Assembly (NCBI GenBank): GCA_017307065.1
Contig: JAFKGL010000010.1
Location: 9,500-73,499 of the forward strand
Origin: Candidatus Paracaedimonas acanthamoebae
GTDB lineage: Bacteria > Pseudomonadota > Alphaproteobacteria > Caedimonadales > Caedimonadaceae
Length of the DNA stretch: 64,000 bases
Reading direction: 5' to 3'
This document shows positions 3,542-64,000 of this stretch, in pieces. The notes under the pieces are model-generated. The model saw only the letters and a list, made by a program, of their open reading frames with translations. It ran no database searches and was not told the DNA's origin. Within the stretch, counting starts at the first letter, position 1; every line of letters starts with the position of its first letter. The translations under genes were made by a program, and so were the position numbers.

Positions 3542-3716
3542 GTGGGTACTTTCTGATATTCTTCCTAACCCTACTGAAAACAATGCTTTTTGGCAAGTCT
3601 CTCCCCTGAAAAAGTATGAATTGCAATTTTTGCATAGCAAAGATGTAACAATTGCCCTTGAAGTCAAAAATTTTCGTCCTATATATGAAACATAACCAAA
3701 CTCAAGGACCGTTATT

Positions 3717-4577
3717 ATGCTTAAAAAATCCCTCCTTCTTATGACCGTTATCTCTTTAAATATTTTGCCAAGTTTTGCCTCAGATGATCAATCAGACGAG
3801 AAAAAATCTTTTTTTCCGCAGAATTTTTCGAAAGATCAATGGACGCAACTTTATACTAAAGGAGAAGCCACCGAAGGCTTTAAAGTTTATCGAGTAGATG
3901 AGGAAAATAAAAAAAAGTTAACACCTAATAAATCACAAATTTTGACTAATTATACAAATCCTCTGGAAGAACGTCTCTGTTTTAAGGAAGCGAGTTATGA
4001 GGAAGATGAAAAATACGAGATAGAAATGCTTCCTGGAATGAAAGAAATGGGGATTTTGAAAACATTTAAAGGAATTTATACACTTCCGGGTGCATATGCA
4101 TTTAGTTCTATTAATGAAATAAATGTGGTGGGTAGTTATGATGTTTTTCGTCCAATTTTTTCTCATGGTGATGTTGAGCAGAATCCCCTCTGTCTTCATG
4201 TATTGTATGAATTTGATGCAACTTTTATAAAGCAAACTTCTGGGGCACACCGCATTAATCAAACGCTTATGAAATTTTTCTATGTTCACAAAGCGTTGCA
4301 ACAGCCAGAGATATATCCTTTAGATTATAATGAGGTGGCTAAAATCGCTGGACGTACATGGTTTGTTGAGTATATGAAGAGTCAAAAAATGTCAGATGAA
4401 ATATGTCTAAAAATGTTATTTAATCCTGAAGATATACGTTTAGAAAACGAATTCTATACGACGATCAGCAATTCTTTGAAGAATGAAATTTATTTGTCAT
4501 TAGGGATTGATACAGCACTTCTTGAATCTATGTATGCAGGGCTTGGTTGGAAAAAAATTAGTTTAGATCGTACTTAA
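3717..4577 (+). CDS. Hypothetical secreted protein (no recognisable family)
   Basis: 286-aa ORF with signal peptide (MLKKSLLLMTVISLNILPSFA/SD). AT-rich, followed by a strong intrinsic terminator. Confidence 0.6.
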   Translation: MLKKSLLLMTVISLNILPSFASDDQSDEKKSFFPQNFSKDQWTQLYTKGEATEGFKVYRVDEENKKKLTPNKSQILTNYTNPLEERLCFKEASYEEDEKYEIEMLPGMKEMGILKTFKGIYTLPGAYAFSSINEINVVGSYDVFRPIFSHGDVEQNPLCLHVLYEFDATFIKQTSGAHRINQTLMKFFYVHKALQQPEIYPLDYNEVAKIAGRTWFVEYMKSQKMSDEICLKMLFNPEDIRLENEFYTTISNSLKNEIYLSLGIDTALLESMYAGLGWKKISLDRT

Positions 4578-4623
4578 ATCCCACAATTTAATAAAGATAA
4601 ACTTTCTTAAAAAGTTAGTTATA

Positions 4624-4653
4624 AGGAGCAAATTAAATTTTGCTCCTTTTTTA
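4624..4653 (+). terminator. Rho-independent terminator after the 286-aa gene
   Basis: aggagcaaa-ttaaa-ttttgctcct stem-loop followed by a T-run (tttttatt). Confidence 0.75.
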
Positions 4654-4727
4654 TTGAAAAGTCGTATTGTACACTCTTTCCAAAATCTTTTACTCTTAAT
4701 GGAACAAAAAAGCGAAAGGTTAAGAAG

Positions 4728-5615
4728 GTGCCTCAACGTGATTTAAAATCAGTGAAATATGCAAGTTATGCGTCGGTCGTTGTTGCTTGCATCTTGATTC
4801 TTGCAAAATTTTTCGCCTGGCAAGTGACAGGGGCTTTGAGCCTGCAAGCTTCGTTGATTGATTCAGTGCTTGATGGATTAGCCTCGCTTTTAAATATGTT
4901 TGCAATCCGTGAAGCCCATCGTCCTCCTGATGCAGAACACCGTTTTGGACACGGTAAAATTGAGGCAATTGGGGCGTTAGCTCAATCCATTTTTATTTTT
5001 GGGTCTGCAAGTTGGTTGTTTTACGAAGCGGGGAATCGTTTCTTACATCCTGAGTCTGTTGAAGAGGCGGGCATCGGGTTGGGAGTGATGGGATTTTCGA
5101 TTGTTCTGACGCTTGCCCTTGTTTTGTATCAAAAGCATGTTTTTAAGCGCACCCATTCTATCGCCATTCAGGCGGATTCAATTCATTACCAAAGTGACTT
5201 ATTTATTAATATAAGCGTTATTATTGCGCTTTTAGGAAGCCGCTTTAACGGGATGTCTTTTTTGGATCCTCTCATTGGGACAGGCATTGCGGCTTATATT
5301 TTATACACAGCCTGGAAAGTTGTTGCTCAATCTTTTGATATTCTCATTGATCGCGAATTCTCTCAAGAAGATCGACAAAAGATCATTCAACTTGTTTTAA
5401 ATCATCCCCAAGTTTTAGGGTATCATGATTTAAGAACTCGCTCTTCTGGGACACAGAAATTTATTCAAATTCATCTTGAAATGGATGGCGATTTAACCTT
5501 AAAAACAGCTCATAAAATTTCTCTAGAGGTCATCTTGAAAATTCAACAAGCTTTTCCTTATACAGAAGTCTTAATCCATGAAGATCCCAGTGGCGAAATC
5601 GATGATCATCCTTAA
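4728..5615 (+). CDS. Cation diffusion facilitator (CDF) family metal efflux transporter (FieF/YiiP-like)
   Basis: GTG start. Six predicted TM helices, conserved HxxxD-type sites (SLIDSVLD, HYQSD) and a C-terminal cytoplasmic domain (VLGYHDLRTRSSGTQKFIQIHLEM). Confidence 0.85.
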   Translation: MPQRDLKSVKYASYASVVVACILILAKFFAWQVTGALSLQASLIDSVLDGLASLLNMFAIREAHRPPDAEHRFGHGKIEAIGALAQSIFIFGSASWLFYEAGNRFLHPESVEEAGIGLGVMGFSIVLTLALVLYQKHVFKRTHSIAIQADSIHYQSDLFINISVIIALLGSRFNGMSFLDPLIGTGIAAYILYTAWKVVAQSFDILIDREFSQEDRQKIIQLVLNHPQVLGYHDLRTRSSGTQKFIQIHLEMDGDLTLKTAHKISLEVILKIQQAFPYTEVLIHEDPSGEIDDHP

Positions 5616-5697
5616 AAGAAATTAGGTAAAAAAGAAGGCGCCAATTTGAATTAGTGGCGCTTATCGATATTAAACTAAATAACCTCTTCTTTCGGTT

Positions 5698-8454
5698 TTA
5701 ACTTGCTTCTGCCCAGCTTCGACCGACACCCGTATCAACAGTTAAAGGAATATCTAGATAGACGACTTTCTCCATCGTTTGTTTTCCGATTTGAAGAGTG
5801 GCTTCAACTTCCGTTTCTGGAATCTCAAGAATCAATTCATCATGAACTTGAAGAAGCATCTTTCCTTTCAATTGGGCTTTAGCGAGATTGATCGGAAGGT
5901 GAATCATGGCTTGTTTTATAATATCGGCTGCTGTGCCTTGAAGAGGTGCATTAATAGCTTGGCGTTCGGCAAAGCCTTTTAAGGTAGGATTTTTTTCGTG
6001 AATACCCATGATAAAACATTTTCGTCCAAATAAGGTTTCAACATATCCTTGAGCTCGAGCTTTTTCTTTTTGATCTTCCATGAAAGCCAAAATCCCAGGA
6101 TAGCGAGCATTATAAATTTCAATATAATGAGCAGCTTCTTTGGGGGAGATTTTTAATTGCCGCCCCAAACCAAAGGCACTGATACCATAAATGATTCCAA
6201 AATTGATGGCTTTTGCCCGACGACGATGTTCTGCATCAACATTTTCCAAGGGCAAGCCAAATACTTCCGACGCCGTTAAGGCGTGGATATCGTAACCGTT
6301 TCGAAAAGCCGTTTTTAAAGATTCCATATTTGCCATTTGAGCGAGAAGTCTTAATTCAATTTGAGAATAGTCCAAAGAGATGAGCATGTGCCCCGGTTTT
6401 GCGACAAAGGCTTCTCGAATCTTACGTCCTTCTTCCGACCGTATAGGAATGTTTTGAAGGTTAGGATTGCTTGAAGAAAGGCGACCTGTCGAAGTCATCG
6501 TCATTCCAAATGTGGTATGAACACGTCCAGTATGTGGATTAATTTCTTCAACTAACGCATCTGTGTAGGTACTTTTAAGTTTTGCAAGTTGTCGCCAATC
6601 AAGAATTTTTTGAGGTAAGTTATGGCCTTGATTAGCTAAATCTTCGAGGACCTCAGCCCCTGTTCCATAAGAACCACTCTTTCCTTTTTTACCCGTGCCT
6701 AATTTCAGCTCTTCAAAAAGAACTTCGCCGAGTTGTTTGGGAGAGGCAAGATTAAAAGGGTGCCCTACTTCTTGATGAATTTCTTGTTCGAGGAAATGAA
6801 GACGTTCTTGAAAATTCTGGCTCAGTTCTTTTAATTTTTGAAGATTGACCGTGATCCCGATCATTTCCATTTCAGTTAAGATAGGGATTAAAGGCCGATC
6901 AATGGTTTCATAAATACTTGTCGCTTGTTCTTTTGGAAGTCTAGGTTTTAACAATTGATAAAGTCGAAAGGTCATGTCCGCATCTTCTGCGGCATAAGTG
7001 CATGCCTTATCTAATGGGACAAAGTCAAAAGTAACTTCTTCTTTGCCTGTGCCCACCACCTCTTTATATTTTATTGTTTGATGATCAAAATGAACTTGAG
7101 ATAATTCATCAAGACCATGCCCATGATGGGTCCCATCTAAAATATAAGAAAGTACCATCGTATCATCATAAGGAGCCACGTTGATATTTTCTTGCGAGAG
7201 AATAAGAGCATCGTATTTTATATTGTGCCCAATTTTAAGAATAGAAGGATCTTCTAAGAGTTCTTTTAATTCTTTAAGAGCCTTTTCATAAGGGATTTGT
7301 TGAGGATTTGTTGAGGGCCCTGAAAATAAATCTTCGGGCGTTTTTGTTTTGTGTCTCAAAGGGATATAACAAGCTTTTCCTGGTGCAAGAGCTAAAGAAA
7401 CGCCAACAAGTTCGGCTTGGAGAGCTTTCAAGGAGGTTGTCTCTGTATCAAGCGCAATGACACCTTGAAATTTAGCTTCGTGAATCCACTTTTGCAGCTC
7501 TTCGAGATGTGTGATTAATTGATAGTTGGCCTTCATAGGAGTGGGTTTTTGAGGAGAATCAGAAGTCGCTGGTTTAGAAGCGATCGTTCCTTCACGCTCA
7601 AGACGGGAAAGAAGGGAGCGGAAATTCTGTGTTTCAAGAAAGCTTCTTAATTTTACAGGTTCTGGTACCCTTAATTCTAAGTTTTCAAGGGGCATTGGGA
7701 GGGGAACTTCTTTGGAAAGAGTCACAAGCTGATATGACAAAAGGGCTTCTTTTGTATTTTGCTGAAGCGTTTCACGACGTTTTGTTTGAGGGATTTCATG
7801 AAGACGGTTCAATAAATCGTGAAGAGATCCGAACTCTTGAATAAGTTGCATTGCTGTTTTAAGTCCTATTCCTGGGACACCTGGGATATTATCCGAACTA
7901 TCTCCGGCTAGGGCTTGCACATCAACAACATTCTCAGGTTTGACGCCAAACTTAATTTCGACTTCAGCTTCTCCAATAGACTTATTTTTCATAGGATCAA
8001 ACATACGAACGTTTGGACCGATAAGTTGCATCAGATCTTTATCTGAAGAGACAATTGTTACATCTGCTCCTTGTTGAAGAACAGCTTGAGTATAACTCGC
8101 GATCAGGTCATCAGCTTCATACCCTATTAACTCAATTGAGGGGACATTAAAAGCCTGGCAAGCTTCGCGGATGAGTGGAAATTGAGGAATAAGCTCGGGT
8201 GGCGGTGGAGGACGATTGGCTTTATAGTCGGGATAAATATCATGGCGAAAATTTCGTCTAGCCGTATCAAAGATAACCCCTAAATGGTCCACGTTAGTTT
8301 CAGATAAAAGCTTCATGAGCATATTTGTAAAACCCAGAACTGCATTGACAGGAGTCCCATCAGGTCGCGTTAGCACAGGTAATCCATGAAAAGCTCTAAA
8401 AATAAAGCCTGATCCGTCAATTAAATACACGTGTTTTAAAGGAGTTGGTGCCAT
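5698..8454 (-). CDS. polA: DNA polymerase I
   Basis: 918 aa. N-terminal 5'-nuclease domain, 3'-5' exonuclease motif (ALDTETTSL), polymerase motifs A (DYSQIELRLLA), B (RRRAKAINFGIIYG) and C (LQVHDEL). Confidence 0.97.
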   Translation of the reverse strand: MAPTPLKHVYLIDGSGFIFRAFHGLPVLTRPDGTPVNAVLGFTNMLMKLLSETNVDHLGVIFDTARRNFRHDIYPDYKANRPPPPPELIPQFPLIREACQAFNVPSIELIGYEADDLIASYTQAVLQQGADVTIVSSDKDLMQLIGPNVRMFDPMKNKSIGEAEVEIKFGVKPENVVDVQALAGDSSDNIPGVPGIGLKTAMQLIQEFGSLHDLLNRLHEIPQTKRRETLQQNTKEALLSYQLVTLSKEVPLPMPLENLELRVPEPVKLRSFLETQNFRSLLSRLEREGTIASKPATSDSPQKPTPMKANYQLITHLEELQKWIHEAKFQGVIALDTETTSLKALQAELVGVSLALAPGKACYIPLRHKTKTPEDLFSGPSTNPQQIPYEKALKELKELLEDPSILKIGHNIKYDALILSQENINVAPYDDTMVLSYILDGTHHGHGLDELSQVHFDHQTIKYKEVVGTGKEEVTFDFVPLDKACTYAAEDADMTFRLYQLLKPRLPKEQATSIYETIDRPLIPILTEMEMIGITVNLQKLKELSQNFQERLHFLEQEIHQEVGHPFNLASPKQLGEVLFEELKLGTGKKGKSGSYGTGAEVLEDLANQGHNLPQKILDWRQLAKLKSTYTDALVEEINPHTGRVHTTFGMTMTSTGRLSSSNPNLQNIPIRSEEGRKIREAFVAKPGHMLISLDYSQIELRLLAQMANMESLKTAFRNGYDIHALTASEVFGLPLENVDAEHRRRAKAINFGIIYGISAFGLGRQLKISPKEAAHYIEIYNARYPGILAFMEDQKEKARAQGYVETLFGRKCFIMGIHEKNPTLKGFAERQAINAPLQGTAADIIKQAMIHLPINLAKAQLKGKMLLQVHDELILEIPETEVEATLQIGKQTMEKVVYLDIPLTVDTGVGRSWAEAS

Positions 8455-15000: not shown

Positions 15001-15044
15001 AACAAATAGAGATAATACAAAAAGATTTTGCTTATCTCTAAAAC

Positions 15045-15073
15045 TTGACAGAGAAGGTTGCAAAGACTTATGC
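15045..15073 (+). promoter_or_regulatory. Candidate promoter for tRNA-Leu(CAG)/rnd
   Basis: TTGACA (15045-15050), 17-nt spacer, TTATGC, 12 nt before the tRNA 5' end. The -10 element is weak. Confidence 0.35.
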
Positions 15074-15085
15074 ATAAAGATTAGA

Positions 15086-15171
15086 GCCCAGGTGGCGGAA
15101 TGGTAGACGCGCTAGATTCAGGTTCTAGTGAGCGCAAGCTTGTGGAAGTTCAAGTCTTCTCCTGGGCACCA
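15086..15171 (+). tRNA. tRNA-Leu (anticodon CAG), CCA encoded
   Basis: Acceptor gcccagg/cctgggc, anticodon arm ctaga-ttCAGgt-tctag, long variable arm, T-arm ggaag-ttcaagt-cttcc, discriminator A plus CCA. Confidence 0.93.
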
Positions 15172-33415: not shown

Positions 33416-33634
33416 TTAACAATTTGCAATAGCTTCGTCATATTCGCGATGAATGCGTTCTATTTCGCGTTGTCTATCATGAGGTAGAATGTCGCGATTT
33501 TCTCTAATGCTATCAAGGGCATGATCTCTATTTTCACGCGCTCTCTCTCTACATTGTTGTGATGCATCAGTAGCTTCAGCGCCACTCACAAAACAACCCA
33601 ACATAATGGATGTAAGTACTATTTTCTTTAACAT
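33416..33634 (-). CDS. Small secreted Arg/Glu-rich protein bracketed by two cysteines
   Basis: ATG at 33634 lies 7 nt after GGAGA. Signal peptide MLKKIVLTSIMLGCFVSGAEA/TD. The mature ~51 aa carry RENRD twice, with Cys near both ends. Confidence 0.5.
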   Translation of the reverse strand: MLKKIVLTSIMLGCFVSGAEATDASQQCRERARENRDHALDSIRENRDILPHDRQREIERIHREYDEAIANC

Positions 33635-33780
33635 TTGTTTCTCCATGTAAATAGTTAATAACAATCTAATTAAATGATAAAAATATTAATAAAGACTTAA
33701 TATTAACTAAATTAAAATTGTTTTTTTAAACACAAGTAGGCTGAACATGATTCATTTTAGTCTAACATCAATTAGTTGAT

Positions 33781-34127
33781 ATCTTCCAGAACTTGCGAGA
33801 TCCTAAACGTTCCAGAGTCGATTCCAAAAATGCTCTACTTCTCCCTCATTTTCACCCTGCCTGTCACGCACGCTGAGGGGTTTCCCTTCTCTTTCATCAG
33901 GCAAAGAGAGGGTATTCGCTCAAAAAGAGCGTTGAGGCTTTATTTCTTCTCCTAAGTAAGGATTTTAATCCCTATTTTAGTCTTTTTCTTGAGGATTCAT
34001 GTCAGAGAGAGTGAAAGGATTATAAGGTTTTGCAAGGCCTGTATAAGATGCGAAATACTCTCTTATCATCCTATTACTAGCCTATCATAATATGATACAT
34101 TTTTCAAGGAAATTCGATAAATGTACT
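33781..34127 (-). repeat. Copy A of the dispersed intergenic repeat family (candidate structured RNA/leader element), minus orientation
   Basis: Collinear by-eye alignment over about 340 nt with 61236-61545 (+), including the near-identical core gaggcaaagaga(a/g)gg(c/t)attcgctcaaaaagagcgtt (written here on the plus strand of copy A). Confidence 0.6.
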
Positions 34128-34244
34128 TAATAAATTGTCTTTTTATAACAATGATTTAATATTTTTTTAGAGAAAATTTTGGAAGGGGTAAATAATTGTT
34201 TTAAAAGCCCTTATAAAAATTAAAAAATGGCCTCAAGGTAGCGC

Positions 34245-34829
34245 TTAAGCATGGCCTGATTCTAAGGAGAGAAGTTCAGGATTCACCCCAATTTTATTCA
34301 GAACTTGTTTCCACAGAAGGTCTAATTCTTTTGTGAAAACAAGGTCAAGATCTGCATCAACCGTGAGCCAACTATTTTCTTGAAGTTCAGCTTCTAATTG
34401 CCCAGCACTCCAGCCTGTATAGCCTAAAGCTAAGATCTTTTTTTGCGGGCCATGACCACTTGCGATCTCATTTAAAATATCAACAGTCGCTGTGAGAGCC
34501 ATCTCATCACTGATTTTGACAGAGGCCTTATGCAAATAATCAGTTGAATGAAGAATAAAGCCTCGTCCCATTTCAACCGGACCTCCGAAATGAATAGGAA
34601 TTTCATCGGTGATGAAAGGCGTTTTGATGTTTAATTGATCTAAGAGCTCTTGAAGCGTAAGGGAATCAATCAAGCGATTTAAAACAAGCCCCATGGCGCC
34701 TTGTTTATCATGACCACAAATCAGGATCACGGCATGGGTAAAACGAGGATCCATAAGATGAGGCATTGCCACGAGAAGTTTGCCGGTTAAAACATCTGTT
34801 GAAGAAGTGAAAATAGAATTTTTATTCAT
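34245..34829 (-). CDS. YqgE/AlgH family protein (UPF0301)
   Basis: Family-typical segments (LVAMPHLMDPRFTHAVILICGHD..GAMGLVLNR; GGPVEMGRGFILH; GYTGWSAGQLEAELQENSWL). Confidence 0.88.
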   Translation of the reverse strand: MNKNSIFTSSTDVLTGKLLVAMPHLMDPRFTHAVILICGHDKQGAMGLVLNRLIDSLTLQELLDQLNIKTPFITDEIPIHFGGPVEMGRGFILHSTDYLHKASVKISDEMALTATVDILNEIASGHGPQKKILALGYTGWSAGQLEAELQENSWLTVDADLDLVFTKELDLLWKQVLNKIGVNPELLSLESGHA

Positions 34830-42521: not shown

Positions 42522-44842
42522 CTTTTGAGATTAAAAAAGTTGGTGTGATTGGTGCGGGCACAATGGGCAGTGGAATTGCAGCTCATCTTGCAAATGCGGG
42601 CGTTGAAGTGCTTCTTTTAGATATGCCTCAATCGGGATTTGGAAAAAAGAATCAACTTGCAGAGCAAGCTATTGAACGCTTACAGAAAGTTGATCCTGCG
42701 GCTTTTATGACACCTAAGATGGCTAAATTTATTACCCCTGGGAATCTTGAAGATGATCTTGAGAAGCTAAGCGCCTGTGATTGGATAATTGAGGCCATTG
42801 TTGAAAATCTTGACGCTAAACAAAATTTATATCAAAAACTTGAAGGAATTCTTAAGCCTCATACAATTATCTCCTCCAATACGTCGACAATTTTGTTGCG
42901 GCACCTCATTAAAGATCGGACGAAAATTTTTCAATCATCTTTTATGATTACGCATTTTTTTAACCCCCCCCGATATATGCGTTTATTGGAAGTCATAAAA
43001 AGTTCCTTTACAGATCCTAAAAAAGTTGAGGCCATAAAATTATTTACAGACATTAAATTAGGAAAAAGTGTTGTTGATTGCCACGATTCTCCGGGATTTA
43101 TTGGAAATCGTATCGGTATTTTTTGGCTGCAGCTTGCGGTTTTAGAAGCTATTCAACAAGGCCTCAAAGTTGAGGAAGTAGACGCCCTTTTTTCTAAACC
43201 GATGGGGATTCCTAAGACAGGTGTTTTTGGTTTAATTGATTTAGTGGGTCTTGATTTAATGCCCTTAATTGGTACGAGCATGAAAGCATCTCTGCCTTCT
43301 CATGACCTTTATTGTCAATTGGAACAAGAAACCCCTTTAATTCAAAAGATGATTTCAGAAGGGTATGTGGGGCGCAAAGGAAAGGGAGGATTTTATCGTA
43401 TTAATCGCGATAATGGGTCTAAAACTAAAGAAGTTATTGATCTTATAACGGGGACCTACAGTCAAACAAATAAGGTTAAACTTTCTATTTTAGAAAATAC
43501 ATCGACTCTAAAGGATCTTCTTTCTTATCCTGATCAGTATGGCAAGTATGTATGGTCGGTTCTTTCGCAACTCCTTTGCTATGTCGCGTCTAAAGTAGAT
43601 GAAATCGCTGATGATATTGTGGCTATTGATACGGCGATGAAGCTTGGGTATGGATGGAAATATGGTCCCTTCGAATTATTAGATAAAATTGGAACTTCAT
43701 GGTTTGTTCAAAGATTGAAAGAAGAAGGAAGAGCAGTACCATCTCTGTTAGAGAAGGTGGGTTCACATTCATTTTATAAAGTACAAGACGGCAAGCTTCA
43801 TCATTTAATCCTTAAAGGAGGGTATCAAGAAATTCAACGCCTTCCAGGGCAACTTTTACTGTCGGATATTAAAATTACATCGAAGCCTTTGGCCAAGAAT
43901 GGCTCCGCCGCCTTATGGGATATTGGAGACGGTGTGGTTTGTCTTGAATTTACAAGCAAGATGAATTCTATCGATCTTGATATTATGAAAATGATTCATA
44001 AAGCTGTCGAAATTGTTCAAAAAGATTACAAAGCCCTTGTAATTTATAATGAAGGTCAAAATTTCTCAGTAGGAGCAAATCTTGGGCTTGCGTTATTTGC
44101 TGTAAATTGTGCTTTGTGGCCTCTTATTCAACAACTCGTTGCAGAAGGGCAACAAGCTTATAAAGCGCTAAAATATGCGCCTTTTCCTGTCGTTGGCGCC
44201 CCTTCTGGAATGGCCTTAGGAGGCGGATGTGAAATACTTTTGCATTGTGATGCTATTCAAGCTCATGCTGAGACCTATATGGGATTAGTTGAAGTCGGTG
44301 TTGGCCTTGTTCCCGCCTGGGGTGGCTGTAAGGAAATGTTGGGACGTTGGCTTAATCATCATAAGCGGCCTGGCGGAGCAATGGTCGCTGTTGGAAAAGT
44401 CTTTGAAATGATTGGGACTGCGACAGTGGCAAAATCTGCGTTTGAAGCCAAAGAACTTTTATTCATAAAAGAAGAGAATGAAATCACGATGAATCGTGAT
44501 CGGTTGCTCGCTGCAGCAAAACAAAAAGCTCTTGATCTTGTTAAAGATTATCATCCCCCTCAAGCACATCTCTATTCTCTTCCTGGAGGTGTGGCTCGTG
44601 TGGCTCTTTCCATGGCGGTTAAAGTCCTTGTTAAGGCAGGAAAAGCAACGCCTTATGATGAAGAAGTCTCAAAATATTTAGCCACAATTTTAAGTGGTGG
44701 AGATATTGATATTACAGACACTCAAGGAGAAGATGAAATTCTAAAACTTGAGAGAGAAGCATTCATCACTTTGATTAAAAACCCAAAAACCCTTGCAAGA
44801 ATAGAACATATCCTCGCAACAGGTAAGCCTTTAAGGAACTAG
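42518..44842 (+). CDS. Bifunctional 3-hydroxyacyl-CoA dehydrogenase / enoyl-CoA hydratase family protein
   Basis: ATGA start/stop overlap with fadA. N-terminal Rossmann fold VGVIGAGTMGSGIA and C-terminal crotonase fold (GANLG...GGGCEILLHCD). The track start at 42470 lies inside fadA and was not used. Confidence 0.9.
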   Translation: MTFEIKKVGVIGAGTMGSGIAAHLANAGVEVLLLDMPQSGFGKKNQLAEQAIERLQKVDPAAFMTPKMAKFITPGNLEDDLEKLSACDWIIEAIVENLDAKQNLYQKLEGILKPHTIISSNTSTILLRHLIKDRTKIFQSSFMITHFFNPPRYMRLLEVIKSSFTDPKKVEAIKLFTDIKLGKSVVDCHDSPGFIGNRIGIFWLQLAVLEAIQQGLKVEEVDALFSKPMGIPKTGVFGLIDLVGLDLMPLIGTSMKASLPSHDLYCQLEQETPLIQKMISEGYVGRKGKGGFYRINRDNGSKTKEVIDLITGTYSQTNKVKLSILENTSTLKDLLSYPDQYGKYVWSVLSQLLCYVASKVDEIADDIVAIDTAMKLGYGWKYGPFELLDKIGTSWFVQRLKEEGRAVPSLLEKVGSHSFYKVQDGKLHHLILKGGYQEIQRLPGQLLLSDIKITSKPLAKNGSAALWDIGDGVVCLEFTSKMNSIDLDIMKMIHKAVEIVQKDYKALVIYNEGQNFSVGANLGLALFAVNCALWPLIQQLVAEGQQAYKALKYAPFPVVGAPSGMALGGGCEILLHCDAIQAHAETYMGLVEVGVGLVPAWGGCKEMLGRWLNHHKRPGGAMVAVGKVFEMIGTATVAKSAFEAKELLFIKEENEITMNRDRLLAAAKQKALDLVKDYHPPQAHLYSLPGGVARVALSMAVKVLVKAGKATPYDEEVSKYLATILSGGDIDITDTQGEDEILKLEREAFITLIKNPKTLARIEHILATGKPLRN

Positions 44843-59489: not shown

Positions 59490-60398
59490 ATGGTTTCTAT
59501 CCCGACAACGACTCCTTATTTCTCAAGCCACTCTGCAGAAGCTACAGTTAAGGACTTTATCACCTTACTTAAGCCAGGTGTGATGACTCTTGTTGTTTTT
59601 AGTGGTTGGGTTGGAATTTATCTTGCTCCAGGGGATTTACACCCTTTTTTAGAGGGGCTTGTTTTACTCGCAATTGCTTTAGGATCTGGCGCTTCTGGAG
59701 CTCTTAACATGTGGTATGATCGGGATATTGATGCGCTTATGAAAAGAACGCAAAGTCGCCCTATTCCAGCAGGACGCATAGCACCTCAAGATGCTTTAGC
59801 CTTTGGAATGATATTAGCCATTTTTTCAATTATATTGATGGGGCTTTCGACCAATTATTTTGCTGCCACTTTATTGGCTTTTTCGATCTTTTTTTATGCG
59901 GTTATTTATACGATGATTCTCAAAAGAACAACGGCGTATAATATTGTTATTGGCGGTGCTGCAGGAGCCTTTCCACCTCTCATTGGATGGGTTGCAGCAA
60001 CAAACGCGATAAGCCCAGAAGCTGTTCTATTATTCTTTATTATTTTCTTGTGGACTCCTCCTCATTTTTGGGCCTTAGCGCTTACAAAAGTTGAAGATTA
60101 TAAACAAGCGAATATTCCAATGTTGCCTAATGTAGTTGGGGAACAGGCAACAAAAAAACAAATCTTAATTTATTCATTTCTATTAATTAGTTTTTCTTAC
60201 TTTTTTTTCTGGTTTCCTCCCTATGGTTGGATTTATGGATCTCTCATAACAATCTTGAATCTAGGATGGTTATTTTTTACGTTTAAGCTCTATTTTAAGG
60301 GGAAAAATACGAATGCAATGCGGCTTTTTATTTTTTCTATAGTTTATCTTTTTTTACTTTTAAGTGCTTTAGTATTAGATCATGGGATAGGGCGATGA
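59490..60398 (+). CDS. ctaB: Protoheme IX farnesyltransferase (heme O synthase)
   Basis: UbiA-family motifs (NMWYDRDIDALMKRTQSRP; GGAAGAFPPLIGW; WTPPHFWALA). Confidence 0.93.
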   Translation: MVSIPTTTPYFSSHSAEATVKDFITLLKPGVMTLVVFSGWVGIYLAPGDLHPFLEGLVLLAIALGSGASGALNMWYDRDIDALMKRTQSRPIPAGRIAPQDALAFGMILAIFSIILMGLSTNYFAATLLAFSIFFYAVIYTMILKRTTAYNIVIGGAAGAFPPLIGWVAATNAISPEAVLLFFIIFLWTPPHFWALALTKVEDYKQANIPMLPNVVGEQATKKQILIYSFLLISFSYFFFWFPPYGWIYGSLITILNLGWLFFTFKLYFKGKNTNAMRLFIFSIVYLFLLLSALVLDHGIGR

Positions 60399-60526
60399 AT
60401 CAGTATAAAATGACTAATCAACAGAAAAAACAACGTACTAAGAACAGAGCTTTATTGATAGTTTTAATCTCGATTGTGGGGTTGTTTTATGGATTAGCAA
60501 TCGTGCGCATTAAATTTGGTCACTAG
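60395..60526 (+). CDS. Small single-TM protein between ctaB and ctaG
   Basis: Not in the track (43 aa): MNQYKMTNQQKKQRTKNRALLIVLISIVGLFYGLAIVRIKFGH. The ATG overlaps the ctaB stop (ATGA) and its TAG abuts the ctaG ATG. Short ORFs occupy this slot in other alphaproteobacterial cta clusters. Confidence 0.5.
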   Translation: MNQYKMTNQQKKQRTKNRALLIVLISIVGLFYGLAIVRIKFGH

Positions 60527-61102
60527 ATGACATCTCAACGCAATAAGCGCACAGTTATTTTTCTGTTAATGCTTCTTTTTGTGATGACAGTACTCTCTTT
60601 TGCATCAGTTCCTCTTTATCGTATTTTTTGTCAAAAAACAGGATATGGAGGAACTCCTCGTGTGGCTCTTGCAGGAGCTGATCGCGTTATCGAACATTCT
60701 TTAACAATTCATTTTAATGCAGATATGAATACGTCACTTCCATGGAAATTTTTGCCTTTACAATCAAAAATAACGGTAAAAGCAGGGGCTTTGGGGTTGG
60801 CTTATTATAAGGTGCAAAATACGTCAGATGAACCCCTTATTGGGATTGCTGTCTATAATGTAACGCCTGATAAAGCTGCTCCTTATTTTAATAAAATAGA
60901 ATGTTTTTGTTTTGAAGAACAAAGGCTTGAACCTCATCAGACCCTCGAGCTTCCTGTTCAATTTTATATTGATCCTAAAATCGCTGAAGATCCTCATTGT
61001 AAAGATCTCACTTCTATCACCCTTTCTTATACTTTTTTTGCGGCAAAAGACCCTAAATTACCTGAAATTTTAGGATTGCCCCGCCTTAATAAAAAACCGT
61101 AA
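60527..61102 (+). CDS. ctaG: Cytochrome c oxidase assembly protein CtaG/Cox11
   Basis: N-terminal TM anchor, YRIFCQKTGYGGT and the copper-binding CFCF motif (IECFCFEEQ). Confidence 0.9.
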   Translation: MTSQRNKRTVIFLLMLLFVMTVLSFASVPLYRIFCQKTGYGGTPRVALAGADRVIEHSLTIHFNADMNTSLPWKFLPLQSKITVKAGALGLAYYKVQNTSDEPLIGIAVYNVTPDKAAPYFNKIECFCFEEQRLEPHQTLELPVQFYIDPKIAEDPHCKDLTSITLSYTFFAAKDPKLPEILGLPRLNKKP

Positions 61103-61235
61103 AGGGATAATTTTCATCTCTCCTTCGTAACAATAGTTCAAACTTCCCTAGGTTGCTGTTGAGACAGCTTCTCGGCAGTGTGCAAGTACTATGATAGTTG
61201 AGAGCATGACGAATCTCTTAAATTTTTTCATTCTT

Positions 61236-61545
61236 GTACCAAATTTGCTTGAATTTTGTATCGTTTTGTGATAGTCTGGTAGTAGATGGTTAGAAATGAT
61301 TCCTTCTTATGAAAAGAAGACCTCTCTTCATAAACCCTTTACTCAGTTTCTGAACCCATCCAATAAGAAGAATAATAAAGGGATGAAAACCTAAATTATT
61401 AAAGAAAGTAAGCCTTTTAACGCTCTTTTTGAGCGAATGCCTTCTCTTTGCCTCGTGAAAAGACAAGGAAAGGTCAGGAAGGATGATATTCAGGAGGTTA
61501 TTCTCGGGCTTGTCCCGGGGATCTCGGGCAACCTGGTGATGTAAC
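61236..61545 (+). repeat. Copy B of the dispersed intergenic repeat family (candidate structured RNA/leader element), plus orientation
   Basis: Collinear by-eye alignment with 34127-33781 (-) and, for the first ~90 nt, with 14905-15000 (+). Conserved core at 61410-61468. Confidence 0.6.
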
Positions 61546-61614
61546 TAGGTGGCAAAAGGATCTCAGCATACGTGAAAGGTATGGTGAGGAGAAAAGCCAA
61601 AAAGCAAGAGGAAG

Positions 61615-61677
61615 GGCTTTCTTTTCAAGAAATATCTCTGATCTTTGTATCAAAGATTCTTGAGAGGAAAGAAAGCC
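61615..61677 (+). other. Long imperfect hairpin inside the ORF-free region
   Basis: ggctttcttt-tcaagaa-atatctctg-atcttt-gtatc-aaagat-tcttga-gagg-aaagaaagcc. Three nested helices (10, 6-7 and 6 bp). Confidence 0.5.
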
Positions 61678-61869
61678 GAGAAATCTCAAAATTGAGACGA
61701 GGCCTTTTCTTTTTTTATTAACTCTACTTTGGCTGTCCTTGCGAATGTGAGGGGCATAGTAAGGGAGATAAACCCCAAAAGCATGCAAGAGGGGATTAAA
61801 AGGAAAGACAGACTTATTTTTGGATTTTTCGACAGAAGGTCTTTTCTCTCTATGAAAGGGCATTTCACC

Positions 61870-61893
61870 CTTTCCTGAGTGCACTCAGGAAAG
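61870..61893. repeat. Perfect 24-nt palindrome
   Basis: ctttcctgagtg/cactcaggaaag: the two halves are exact reverse complements. Confidence 0.8.
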
Positions 61894-62367
61894 ATTTGGG
61901 ATCCTGGAGAATGAGCAAGGATGATGAAGGCGTAAATGGATAGGAAGTAAAAAGGGTCTTACAGGTTTCTCCTTTGTTGTTCTTGCGACTCTCTCCCTCT
62001 TTAGGATGAAAAACATCGAATGGGGATAGGGGAGATCTTAAGGTTACTTGAGATCCTAAGCACAGGGCCGAGGATAATGAAAGAAAAGAGGGCTTTGAGC
62101 TTATGGGCGAGAACTGAGTGGAAATAAGAATGAATAAAGAAAGGAGGAAAAGGTTTAGACGTAAAAAGTTAAAATCTCATGATCTGCAAGCCCATCTACA
62201 TCAGGACATTATTAACGACTTTTTTCTAAAAAACTTGTACATGACATAAAATTAAAAATTTTTAATAAAAAAGACTAAAATTGTTGGAAGATAGTTGAAA
62301 GCTAAGCTACATTCTGGCAACCTCTTAAAGAGAAACACGTTTAATTTTTAACAAAAGAGTGAGGATA

Positions 62368-64000
62368 ATGGAAATCTATTATATTATTTTAGGGTGTGGG
62401 CTTTTAGCTTTGCTCTATGGCTTGTATGCAGGGGCGCAAGTTCTTAAAGCCCCCAAAGGAACAGCCAGAATGATTGAGATTGCAGCTGCTATTCAAGAAG
62501 GAGCTGCTGCTTACTTAAATCGTCAATATAAAACAATTGCAATGGTTGGTTTTGTTGTTGCCGCAGGATTATCTTGGGTTCTTGGTTGGCACGTCGGAGC
62601 GGGCTTTGTTATGGGGGCGGTACTTTCTGGAATCGCGGGTTACATTGGAATGAACGTCTCCGTTCGTGCAAATGTAAGAACAGCTGAAGCTGCAAGATCT
62701 GGATTACAACCGGCGTTAGACATTGCTTTTAAAGGCGGTGCAATTACGGGGATGTTGGTTGTTGGTTTAGGACTTCTCGGAATCACTCTTTATTTCATGA
62801 TCTTAAAGAATAGTCATTATGAACAACGTGCGATCATGGAAGCCTTGATTGCATTAAGTTTTGGCGCTTCGCTCATTTCTATTTTTGCTCGTTTAGGGGG
62901 GGGTATCTTCACCAAAGGGGCAGATGTCGGCGCAGATTTGGTTGGTAAGATTGAGGCAGGAATCCCTGAGGATGATCCCCGAAATCCAGCTGTTATCGCA
63001 GATAACGTGGGTGATAACGTGGGTGACTGTGCAGGAATGGCAGCTGACCTTTTTGAAACATATGTGGTCACGATTGTTGCGACAATGGTGTTAGGCACGA
63101 TTTTCATTAAGGGAGACATAGCCGAAACCTTAATCCTATATCCTTTATTGATTGGGGCGGTTTGTATCGTTGGTTCTATTTTGGGAACTTTTGCGGTTAA
63201 GCTTGGTAAGCAACAAAACATCATGGGTGCTTTGTATAAAGGGCTCTTCGTTTGCACGCTTTTATCAGCAGGTTTTATTATGCTGGCAACTCAAAAATTA
63301 GTCGGCTTTGAGCAAACTTTCATGATTGGTGACCTCGTCGTTGATGGAACTAAGCTTTTGATTTGTGCTTTCACAGGTCTTGCCGTAACTGGTCTTCTTG
63401 TGTGGATCACAGAGTATTATACCTCAACAGCGTATCGTCCGGTTCGAAGCATTGCTTCTGCTTCTCAAACAGGCCATGCAACCAATATTATTCAAGGTCT
63501 TGCAGTATCTATGGAATCTTGTGCATTACCAGTGCTCGTGATTTCTGCAGGTATTCTTATCGCTTACACCAATGCGGGGCTTTATGGAATTGCAATTGCG
63601 GCAACGGCAATGTTGGCTTTGGCGGGAATGGTTGTTGCATTAGATGCCTATGGTCCGATCACGGATAACGCGGGTGGTATTGCTGAAATGTCTGAACTTC
63701 CAAAAGAAGTTCGTACGGTAACAGATGCTCTTGATGCTGTTGGAAATACAACGAAAGCCGTGACTAAGGGATACGCGATTGGATCTGCTGGTCTTGCAGC
63801 GCTTGTATTATTCTCTGCTTATACTGAGGATTTAAACCATTATTTCCCCGGCTTGAATTGTGCCTTCGTTCTTCAAGATCCGTATGTTGTAATTGGTCTA
63901 TTCATTGGTGGCTTATTGCCTTATCTTTTTGGGGCAATGGGGATGATGGCTGTCGGTCGTGCTGGTGCGCAAGTCGTTGTTGAAGTCCGTCGTCAATTCA
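62368..64000 (+). CDS. hppA: K+-insensitive pyrophosphate-energized proton pump (H+-PPase), 3'-partial
   Basis: Not in the track because there is no stop within the window. ATG at 62368 follows GAGGA. N-terminus [24 protein letters not shown], then [21 protein letters not shown] and [19 protein letters not shown]. Continues beyond 64000. Confidence 0.95.

Follow-up and report, generated by a model that had tools for sequence, protein, structure and literature searches.

Here we report that most of the gap between ctaG and hppA, at positions 61103-62367 of a 64,000-nt stretch of contig JAFKGL010000010.1 (the whole of which is referred to below as the window), is probably the gene for an independently transcribed structured RNA, a reading to which we assign a probability of about 0.6. 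The RNA would represent a lineage-specific, multi-copy family whose members carry their own promoter and which, judging from GTDB genomes (one per species) and JGI metagenomes, appears to be confined to Caedibacter/Paracaedimonas-type amoeba symbionts. The gap holds a member of this family; its promoter block is conserved, its helices covary, its G-U pairs and folding energies distinguish the two strands, and it is under selective constraint, with 85-94% identity to its ortholog against ~57-68% at neutral sites. An earlier examination of the sequence alone (the sequence-only reading) had proposed a long structured RNA, a long regulated 5' leader of hppA or the scar of a rearrangement or decayed mobile element. 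This evidence supports the first proposal, and in our view a regulatory or scaffold RNA transcribed on its own is likelier than an hppA leader or a selfish repeat.

Positions 61221-61471 match 34136-33882 on the minus strand of the window (70% identity over 260 nt, blastn E = 7e-29), the shared part starting with a promoter-like block and closing with a well-conserved core. The repeat copy that the sequence-only reading had noticed is thus present and far larger than described; taken there as a mere repeat, it is in fact a complete promoter and RNA-domain unit of a multi-copy family. This second copy, B, lies in the 580-nt gap (33665-34244) between a yqgE-like gene (34245-34829) and an 82-aa open reading frame (ORF; 33416-33664), and is further supported by nhmmer (E = 7e-48) and by the covariance model R1 described below (63.5 bits at 33989-34080). 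Further copies were collected by scanning both sequence collections with an exact 20-mer from the element, AACGCTCTTTTTGAGCGAAT. The GTDB scan returned 22 loci, all in three Caedibacter/Paracaedimonas genomes (seven in Ca. Caedibacter/Paracaedimonas acanthamoebae CP008936, nine in Caedibacter sp. 37-49 and six in Caedibacter sp. 38-128), and the JGI metagenomes contributed 41 more, which together amount to 34 distinct versions at 97% identity; individual loci bear L numbers below. Ca. P. acanthamoebae (formerly Caedibacter) is placed by NCBI in Caedimonadaceae, Holosporales. The organism of the window is a further relative (ctaG protein 92% identical) and recurs in many metagenomes with the same 1265-nt gap; ERZ17914400 and JGI 3300006189 and 3300025006 are among the samples that contain it. 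Downstream of a shared 5' domain the copies are mosaics of modules. Judged from translations only, L021 (~5240-6113, minus strand) and L017 (~3678-4760) lie directly upstream of seemingly phage- or gene transfer agent (GTA)-type major capsid and portal genes, and other copies precede seemingly secreted effector-like proteins, an acetyl-CoA synthetase and a pentapeptide/Smr protein. The two copies in the window are laid out as follows.

33881-34115, minus strand: copy B, promoter (-35 at 34107-34102, -10 at 34084-34079) and 5' domain, found by blastn, nhmmer and R1
61103-61248, no strand: spacer after the ctaG stop codon, apparently unconstrained (57% identical to the ortholog L014)
61249-61277, plus strand: putative sigma-70-type promoter, near-consensus and conserved in the family
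61284-61475, plus strand: 5' RNA domain of ~190 nt, common to the whole family
61284-61364, plus strand: nested helices P1 and P1b and hairpin P2, first half of the 5' domain (covariance model R1)
61362-61379, plus strand: single-stranded A-rich tract AAT AAG AAG AAT AAT AAA, six A-A-N triplets (sequence, family alignments)
61371-61401, plus strand: hairpin P3, AATAAT/ATTATT with AGG/CCT (single-sequence folds of most copies)
61419-61438, plus strand: the query 20-mer with hairpin P4, CGCTC-TTTTT-GAGCG (61421-61435)
61440-61475, plus strand: region of hairpin P5 (GCCTTCTCTTTGCCTCGTGAAAAGACAAGGAAAGG), where the shared 5' domain ends (alignments, folds)
61497-62007, plus strand: conserved domain M1+X (ortholog identity)
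62003-62249, plus strand: vestiges of two small ORFs (similarity to paralog ORFs)
62200-62367, plus strand: conserved block belonging to hppA and lying upstream of it (88% identity to each ortholog, L014 and L045)

Read from the sequence, the promoter consists of a -35 hexamer TTGAAT (61249-61254), a 17-nt spacer and an extended -10 element TGa TAGTCT (61269-61277). Upstream of all 35 distinct copies the block TTGAww-17 nt-TGr TAGyCT is the best-conserved part; the 10 nt directly 5' of it carry 1.19 bits per position over the same copies. A conserved A/T-rich stretch and this block form the left edge of the shared unit; farther upstream the family similarity fades within ~40-90 nt. A simple consensus promoter scan of 60900-62500 did not list this block, and we infer its promoter function from conservation. 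Transcription is predicted to start at about 61284 and would run rightward from what looks like a strong sigma-70-type promoter. No promoter-like site was matched on the minus strand of 60900-62500 by the same simple consensus.

The first half of the 5' domain is held together by P1 (AGAUGGU/ACCAUCU), P1b and P2, which fold in most copies. RNAalifold applied to a plain MAFFT alignment returned only P3b and P4, with hairpin arms 1-2 columns out of register; the helices were therefore taken from single-sequence folds and the copies were then realigned with a covariance model. This model, R1, built from the P1-P2 part with the 20-mer excluded, matches the window at 61276-61364 with 75.4 bits (E = 9e-14) and recovers 59 copies in the 0.51 Mb searched. 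Across its alignment of 33 distinct sequences 79% of the cells are paired, compared with 39-52% when the partners are slid; this alignment is fitted to the structure and favours it, and an unfitted MAFFT alignment of 20 copies agrees in direction (72.7% of P1/P1b/P2 cells paired versus 39-50% slid). Both sides of the pair change in 14 of the 20 pairs of the R1 alignment, cells with double changes number 54 as against 20.7 +/- 3.6 in shuffles, and none of 500 shuffles reached any of the five covariation measures. In P2 alone, 8 of 9 pairs show compensatory changes. The base pairs of this part of the 5' domain are thus held by compensatory changes beyond the controls, as in a structured RNA. P1 often contains G-U and U-G pairs, consistent with an RNA that has the sequence of the element's own (plus) strand.

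In the remainder of the 5' domain, the tract at 61362-61379 is kept A-rich across the family alignments, and the inner stem of P3, AGG/CCU, is replaced by GAG(U)/(A)CUC in L017, L021, L022, L027 and L030. P5 exists in two subfamily versions that cannot be aligned with each other. The P4 stem within the 20-mer shows neither covariation nor any variation in the 63 loci fetched with that query, while the neighbouring helices covary; every P1-P2 domain found without using the 20-mer in the 0.51 Mb also adjoins it, an independent support of limited weight. An unvarying 20-mer would fit a sequence-specific protein site or a DNA-level site.

Comparison with orthologous loci indicates where the gap is constrained. 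The order ctaG-element-hppA is kept in Ca. P. acanthamoebae (L014, gap of 1477 nt) and in sp. 38-128 (L045), a check on conservation in relatives that the sequence-only reading had called for. At third codon positions the flanking genes agree with L014 in 64-68% of cases (ctaB, ctaG, hppA) and with L045 in 62% (hppA). Identity to L014 and L045, respectively, amounts to 85% and 83% for the promoter with the 5' domain, 94% and 92.5% for M1 (for L045 over 61527-61606 only) and 93% and 89% for X (61557-62007). Beyond X it falls to 58% over 62008-62199 in L014, and stands at 85% (62008-62127) and 72% (62128-62199) in L045. The segment 61249-62007 thus appears to be constrained about as strongly as first codon positions.

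At 1265 nt the gap (ctaG 60527-61102; hppA ATG at 62368) is, as had been claimed, the longest non-coding stretch of the window; after filtering to ORFs of at least 80 aa the runner-up is the 580-nt gap of copy B and the median is 30 nt. The accompanying claim that it lacks a credible ORF also stands. No ORF of note lies on the plus strand, and the only long ORF, an antisense one of 128 aa at 61498-61884, was rejected as a gene because a 1-nt indel in the Ca. P. acanthamoebae ortholog shifts the frame of its N-terminal half. The purine richness that had been stressed is real and modest: purines make up 55.7% of the plus strand of the gap, 58.3% of 61400-62200 and 50.9% of the whole window, and some coding stretches of the window are equally purine-rich. 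GC skew within the gap region reaches +0.24 to +0.35. When the gap was translated in all six frames and stops were masked, no Pfam family matched at E <= 1; a remnant of COX3 (coxC/ctaE), whose decay at this position had been raised as a possibility, or of a transposase gene is therefore not supported.

The 3' body adds two modules to the 5' domain, M1 and X, the latter followed by a third, M2.

61497-61606, plus strand: M1, with a hairpin CGGGCTTGTCCCG flanked by GATC, an ACCTGGT/ACTAGGT hairpin and a CATAC-GTGAAAG-GTATG hairpin (ortholog identity)
61557-62007, plus strand: domain X, a highly paired body (ortholog identity, RNAalifold, minimum free energy)
61617-61671, plus strand: nested hairpin in X (fold and repeat search)
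61870-61893, plus strand: palindromic hairpin in X, perfect over 24 nt (inverted-repeat search)
61915-61930 with 61971-61986, plus strand: terminal 16-bp hairpin of X, which buries AAGGATGATGAAGG

Both the nested hairpin and the perfect 24-nt palindrome announced by the sequence-only reading were found; the latter has counterparts with different stems in L019 and L023. The predicted 724-nt RNA (61284-62007) has a minimum free energy of -226.7 kcal/mol (z = -4.2) and the opposite strand one of -191.8 kcal/mol, so that the plus strand folds 35 kcal/mol better. RNAalifold on X gives 151 pairs, 28 of them with changes on both sides, over five sequences. Compensatory changes include CCUGAGUG/CACUCAGG to CCUGGGUG/CACCUAGG in X and, in M1, CAUAC/GUAUG to CCUAC/GUAGG (A-U to C-G) in sp. 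38-128. Domain X is present in four species at one or two loci each, the second being downstream of yqgE; copy B, the window's own copy at that locus, lacks the M1+X body, which three other species have at the corresponding position.

M1 (61497-61606) and M2 (62003-62196) recur in many family copies, often with M2 before M1, and M1 always stands downstream of a 5' domain. Within the gap, 61498-61534 (M1) is complementary to 62041-62077 (M2), forming a 37-nt inverted repeat with 73% complementarity that flanks X and is absent from the yqgE-locus X copies of sp. 38-128. At least one complementary M1 partner is kept by M2: upstream in the window, downstream in sp. 38-128 and on both sides in Ca. 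P. acanthamoebae. This shifting position suggests selection for a ~37-bp duplex or recombination between modules.

Palindromes of this kind raise the possibility of repetitive extragenic palindromic (REP) sequences or bacterial interspersed mosaic elements (BIME) that accumulated in a large intergenic region and act at the DNA level, as gyrase or IHF sites or as terminators. Such a reading would account for the short GC-rich palindromes (GATCCCCGGG..CCCGGGGATC-type hairpins, and GTCATCCCCGCGAAAGCGGGGATCCAGG in paralogs) and for their alternating orientation with conserved linkers. We consider it highly improbable: every one of the 96 matches that blastn gave for M1 or M2 falls no more than 2.2 kb downstream of a 5' domain, in a zone that covers 26% of the sequence examined, and the rest of the 64-kb window is free of such matches. 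The modules are therefore parts of a family unit and not genome-wide REP elements; moreover, the palindromes are accompanied by a conserved promoter and a 190-nt non-palindromic covarying domain, and the difference in stability between the strands also speaks against a DNA-level role. A second palindromic unit, GTCATCC(C/T)CGCGAAAGCGGG(G/A)ATCCAGGAA, is found repeatedly and in either orientation within long copies of the family, for example L025 (ext 540-600, 950-1060), L013 and L011; it is absent from the window copy and gives spurious peptides of the 'VILAKAGIQ' kind.

The independently transcribed RNA that we favour would be at least ~725 nt long, to about 62007, and would probably continue through M2 to about 62130-62200. 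Its chief competitor is the idea that the element is a portable promoter with a long 5' untranslated region (UTR) placed before many unrelated genes of a common regulon, here serving as a regulated leader read through into hppA; we hold this to be rather unlikely. The element is co-oriented with hppA, with no terminator detected between them, and the ctaG-hppA position is conserved in three species. A protein gene follows within ~300 nt of the 5' domain in several paralogs (59 nt in L022, 248 nt in L024), and the genes downstream include, from translations only, secreted or effector-like proteins and phage capsid and portal proteins. Of 27 scorable copies, 19 are followed by a co-oriented and 8 by a convergent gene; we judged this count uninformative, since a co-oriented share of about 70% is close to what is usual in bacteria. 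The element is not found only upstream of hppA, however: M1+X also lies downstream of yqgE in three other species, and the 5' domain precedes many unrelated genes. At the yqgE locus the end of X is separated by 5 nt (sp. 38-128) or 6 nt (Ca. P. acanthamoebae) from the stop codon of a gene that runs towards it, so that the unit cannot be a leader there.

A leader of ~1.08 kb would also be unusually long, and hppA appears to have upstream signals of its own. The 170-nt conserved block before it is parted from the RNA body by a poorly conserved, indel-rich stretch and contains two candidate promoters, TTAAAA-18-TAAAAT (62252-62281, from a consensus scan) and TTGGAA-17-CTACAT (62284-62312, read from the sequence), followed by a 5' UTR and the Shine-Dalgarno sequence GAGGA. 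Within this block AAAATTGTTGGAAGATAGTTGAAAGCTAAGCTACATTCTGGCAA is identical in sp. 38-128. The hppA leader put forward by the sequence-only reading is thus the less likely option, on account of the yqgE-locus copies and of this block.

The 3' end of the gap carries the remains of two small ORFs.

61921-61935, plus strand: vestigial ORF1 start, ATG ATG AAG GCG TAA (M M K A stop), enclosed by the 16-bp hairpin that ends X
62003-62127, plus strand: C-terminal remnant of ORF1 (..HRMGIGEILRLLEILSTGPRIMKEKRALSLWARTEWK stop), 40 codons, in M2; motif shared with L023, L019 and L016
62130-62249, plus strand: remnant of ORF2 (MNKERRKRFRRKKLKSHDLQAHLHQD..), similar to ORF2 of L023

In the predicted fold the terminal hairpin buries the vestigial ribosome-binding site and start codons. 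The AAGGA-ATGATGAAr start opens intact ORFs of ~100 codons in the paralogs L016 and L019, and in L016, L019 and L023 an open ORF of ~100 codons, preceded by a conserved Shine-Dalgarno sequence and starting with ATGATr, has M2 as its 3' end; in L023 a short second ORF overlaps and follows ORF1. The ATG of ORF2 in the window reads ATA in sp. 38-128 (L045). The remnants are retained in one lineage pair only, without codon-like patterns. Even in the intact copies ORF1 is only a putative coding sequence, because differences by codon position (40/35/46, 32/27/39 and 38/38/49) show almost no third-position excess. Intact ORF1 is hydrophilic and rich in K, R, E and Q, and the module encoding EILGTGPRM lies inside it. 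ORF1 and ORF2 of the paralogs gave no Pfam family and no PADLOC match, and a search of 5.8 billion proteins with the small ORFs returned a single annotated homolog, a hypothetical protein of Ca. P. acanthamoebae. This protein, IM40_08840, is an orphan without a family match. In L016, L019, L023, L068 and L046, as in IM40_08840, ORF1 encodes a basic protein of ~100 aa with the motifs FNRWWDL(I/T)FG and IGEIFRSLEILGTGPRMTK; the latter is encoded by a palindromic module in which synonymous third-position changes on both arms preserve stem and peptide.

Such remains would also be expected of a selfish or decaying non-autonomous mobile or duplicative element with a two-ORF cassette, of which the window copy would be a pseudogenised, functionless example. 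The family is multi-copy and mosaic, with identical duplicates in one genome (5' domains of L012 and L020, and of L013 and L014) and a common left edge of recent duplicates ~35-40 nt upstream of the -35 hexamer. Its palindromic modules are met in either orientation, the window copy has truncated forms of ORF1 and ORF2, ORF1 is almost without codon-position bias, and 62008-62199 is poorly conserved in Ca. P. acanthamoebae (58%). We nevertheless regard this explanation as distinctly unlikely. Three species share the locus as orthologs, conservation of 61249-62007 greatly exceeds that of neutral sites, and covarying helices with G-U pairs are not needed by a DNA-level element; neither terminal inverted repeats nor target duplications nor transposase or recombinase remnants were seen, and blastn found no match in plasmid and phage collections. 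A miniature inverted-repeat transposable element or other non-autonomous transposon was rejected on the same absence of terminal repeats and target duplications, on the gradual fading of the upstream similarity and because the 37-nt inverted repeat around X is missing at the yqgE locus of sp. 38-128. The scar envisaged by the sequence-only reading therefore holds for the 3' fifth of the gap, where the cassette vestiges lie (62003-62249), and fails for the rest. We read the window copy as working as an RNA and not as an mRNA, because its ORFs are vestigial while the RNA body is strongly constrained.

Several considerations weigh against an independent structured RNA. The family may basically be one of mRNAs, because several paralogs keep open ~100-codon ORFs with Shine-Dalgarno sequences. 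A simple consensus scan of 60900-62500 found no canonical intrinsic terminator, and read-through into hppA is thus possible. Because the family was collected with the 20-mer, the invariance of the latter is partly by construction, and the apparent covariation of X rests on five sequences, of which one aligns poorly. Gene conversion or recent exchange between copies, and not selection, could be the source of part of the high identity; the two X copies of Ca. P. acanthamoebae show zero differences in the aligned X block. Transcription, its start and end points, and function are inferred from sequence, and the protein-handle function discussed below draws on general knowledge.

If the RNA exists, its mode of action may be pictured as follows. 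A 5' domain comprising P1/P1b/P2, the A-A-N tract, P3, the fixed-sequence P4 and P5 would be joined, in a subset of copies only, to the M1+X body. The fixed hairpin and the A-rich tract would serve all copies as a handle for protein binding, and regulation or scaffolding would fall to the 3' body, which is variable, rich in purines and dense in hairpins, a scheme to which we give somewhat less than even odds. A fixed-sequence hairpin among covarying neighbours, together with the promoter and module features, points to a specific protein partner. A-A-N tracts are associated with binding of the Hfq type, and a G-rich, C-poor composition would suit a long untranslated RNA escaping Rho; a CsrA sponge, Hfq binding and Rho evasion are ideas suggested by, respectively, the GGA motifs, the A-A-N tract and the excess of G over C. 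The copies appear to spread as DNA cassettes bearing their own promoter, and some paralogs may still encode the small basic ORF pair after the leader. More speculatively, and in our view doubtful as a whole, the family could be an undescribed class of large modular RNAs of Holosporales endosymbionts, in which a promoter and a 190-nt handle are combined with exchangeable, mutually pairing 3' modules in a self-multiplying cassette with a dedicated P4-binding protein.

The element matches no known RNA family. The Rfam 15 scan of the window at gathering thresholds, a check that had been recommended, yielded only three tRNAs elsewhere and nothing at the gap. An E-value scan of 60900-62600 gave hits all far below gathering, the closest being the Lysine riboswitch (17.4 vs 30 bits) and the top one ceN114 (21.9 vs 44), and Rfam found nothing at the element in six other family copies. 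Alphaproteobacterial transfer-messenger RNA (tmRNA), RNase P, 6S, SRP, riboswitches, ROSE, HEARO, OLE, GOLLD, ROOL and group I and II introns were accordingly rejected, as was any other Rfam 15 family, for want of a model match. ARAGORN predicted no tRNA or tmRNA gene, including two-piece forms, in 60900-62500, and no description of such an RNA family was found in the searchable literature on Caedibacter acanthamoebae, Caedimonas and Paracaedimonas.

Among known systems, the ornate RNAs (OLE, GOLLD, ROOL, HEARO, raiA), large bacterial non-coding RNAs whose functions are unknown or only lately coming to light, are hundreds of nucleotides long, densely paired, restricted to narrow lineages and discovered comparatively, HEARO being multi-copy. 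The present family resembles them in all these respects and differs in matching no Rfam 15 model, in the promoter that travels with every copy, in its modular 3' body and in the small ORFs of some paralogs. Dual-function RNAs such as Staphylococcus RNAIII, SgrS/SgrT and Bacillus SR1 likewise combine a structured RNA with a small protein in some versions, a parallel we see in the vestigial ORF1 start within the 16-bp hairpin; they are, however, single-copy with defined base-pairing targets, whereas here there are 6-9 or more copies per genome and the ORF is lost in the window copy. Type I toxin-antitoxin loci (hok/sok, aapA/isoA) share multiple chromosomal copies, long and folded 5' UTRs, concealment of the ribosome-binding site by long-range pairing, and frequent decay of copies. 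ORF1, at ~100 aa, basic and hydrophilic, is unlike their short membrane peptides, and PADLOC and Pfam were negative; a type I toxin was rejected, as no small hydrophobic ORF is present, intact ORF1 is of the K/R/E/Q-rich ~100-aa kind and the window copy ends as MMKA-stop.

Dispersed repeats (REP/BIME, Neisseria Correia and Rickettsia palindromic elements) are also multi-copy, palindromic and found in both orientations; Correia elements can carry promoter activity, and the Rickettsia elements can sit inside ORFs, as the EILGTGPRM module does inside ORF1. Unlike them, the present family has a unit of 0.25-1.1 kb with a non-palindromic covarying domain, lacks terminal inverted repeats and confines its modules to itself. 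The Borrelia 'upstream homology box', a conserved promoter and leader block duplicated before different genes, is similar in arrangement; there, however, the genes are paralogous, whereas the present family precedes genes unrelated to one another or, in some copies, no gene at all, and its leader is an RNA structure that covaries.

Should the interpretation hold, the element would stand for a new structured RNA family of fair size (0.25-1 kb) that no Rfam model matches, and one from a poorly studied group of obligate intracellular bacteria. The combination of its own conserved promoter, multiple copies, swappable 3' modules and a fixed hairpin beside covarying neighbours is unusual. The fixed-hairpin cassette class, if real, would amount to a novel regulatory system of RNA and protein or else to a novel kind of RNA gene that propagates itself; its 0.75-kb M1+X form would be a conserved RNA of the ornate type. 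For annotation, the family accounts for the two largest 'empty' gaps of the window and for similar gaps in relatives, and it renders doubtful the 121-aa ORFs called in metagenome copies of this locus, which overlie the frame-broken antisense ORF, as well as the orphan gene call IM40_08840 of Ca. P. acanthamoebae. For symbiont biology, it is a candidate handle on the co-regulation of effector-like and phage/GTA-like genes, as these are recognised from translations only.

Two further features of the window lie outside the element. Between ctaB and ctaG, with junctions of 4 nt and 0 nt, a 43-aa ORF (60395-60526) is assigned to PF27516 (YCO2) in metagenome copies and adds a small membrane protein to the cta cluster. 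The direct repeat TCTAAAACTTGA(C/G)AGAGAAG, 20 nt in length, occurs at 15037-15056 and 44740-44759 with 95% identity and may be a shared promoter element, because its first copy lies ~30 nt upstream of the tRNA at 15086.

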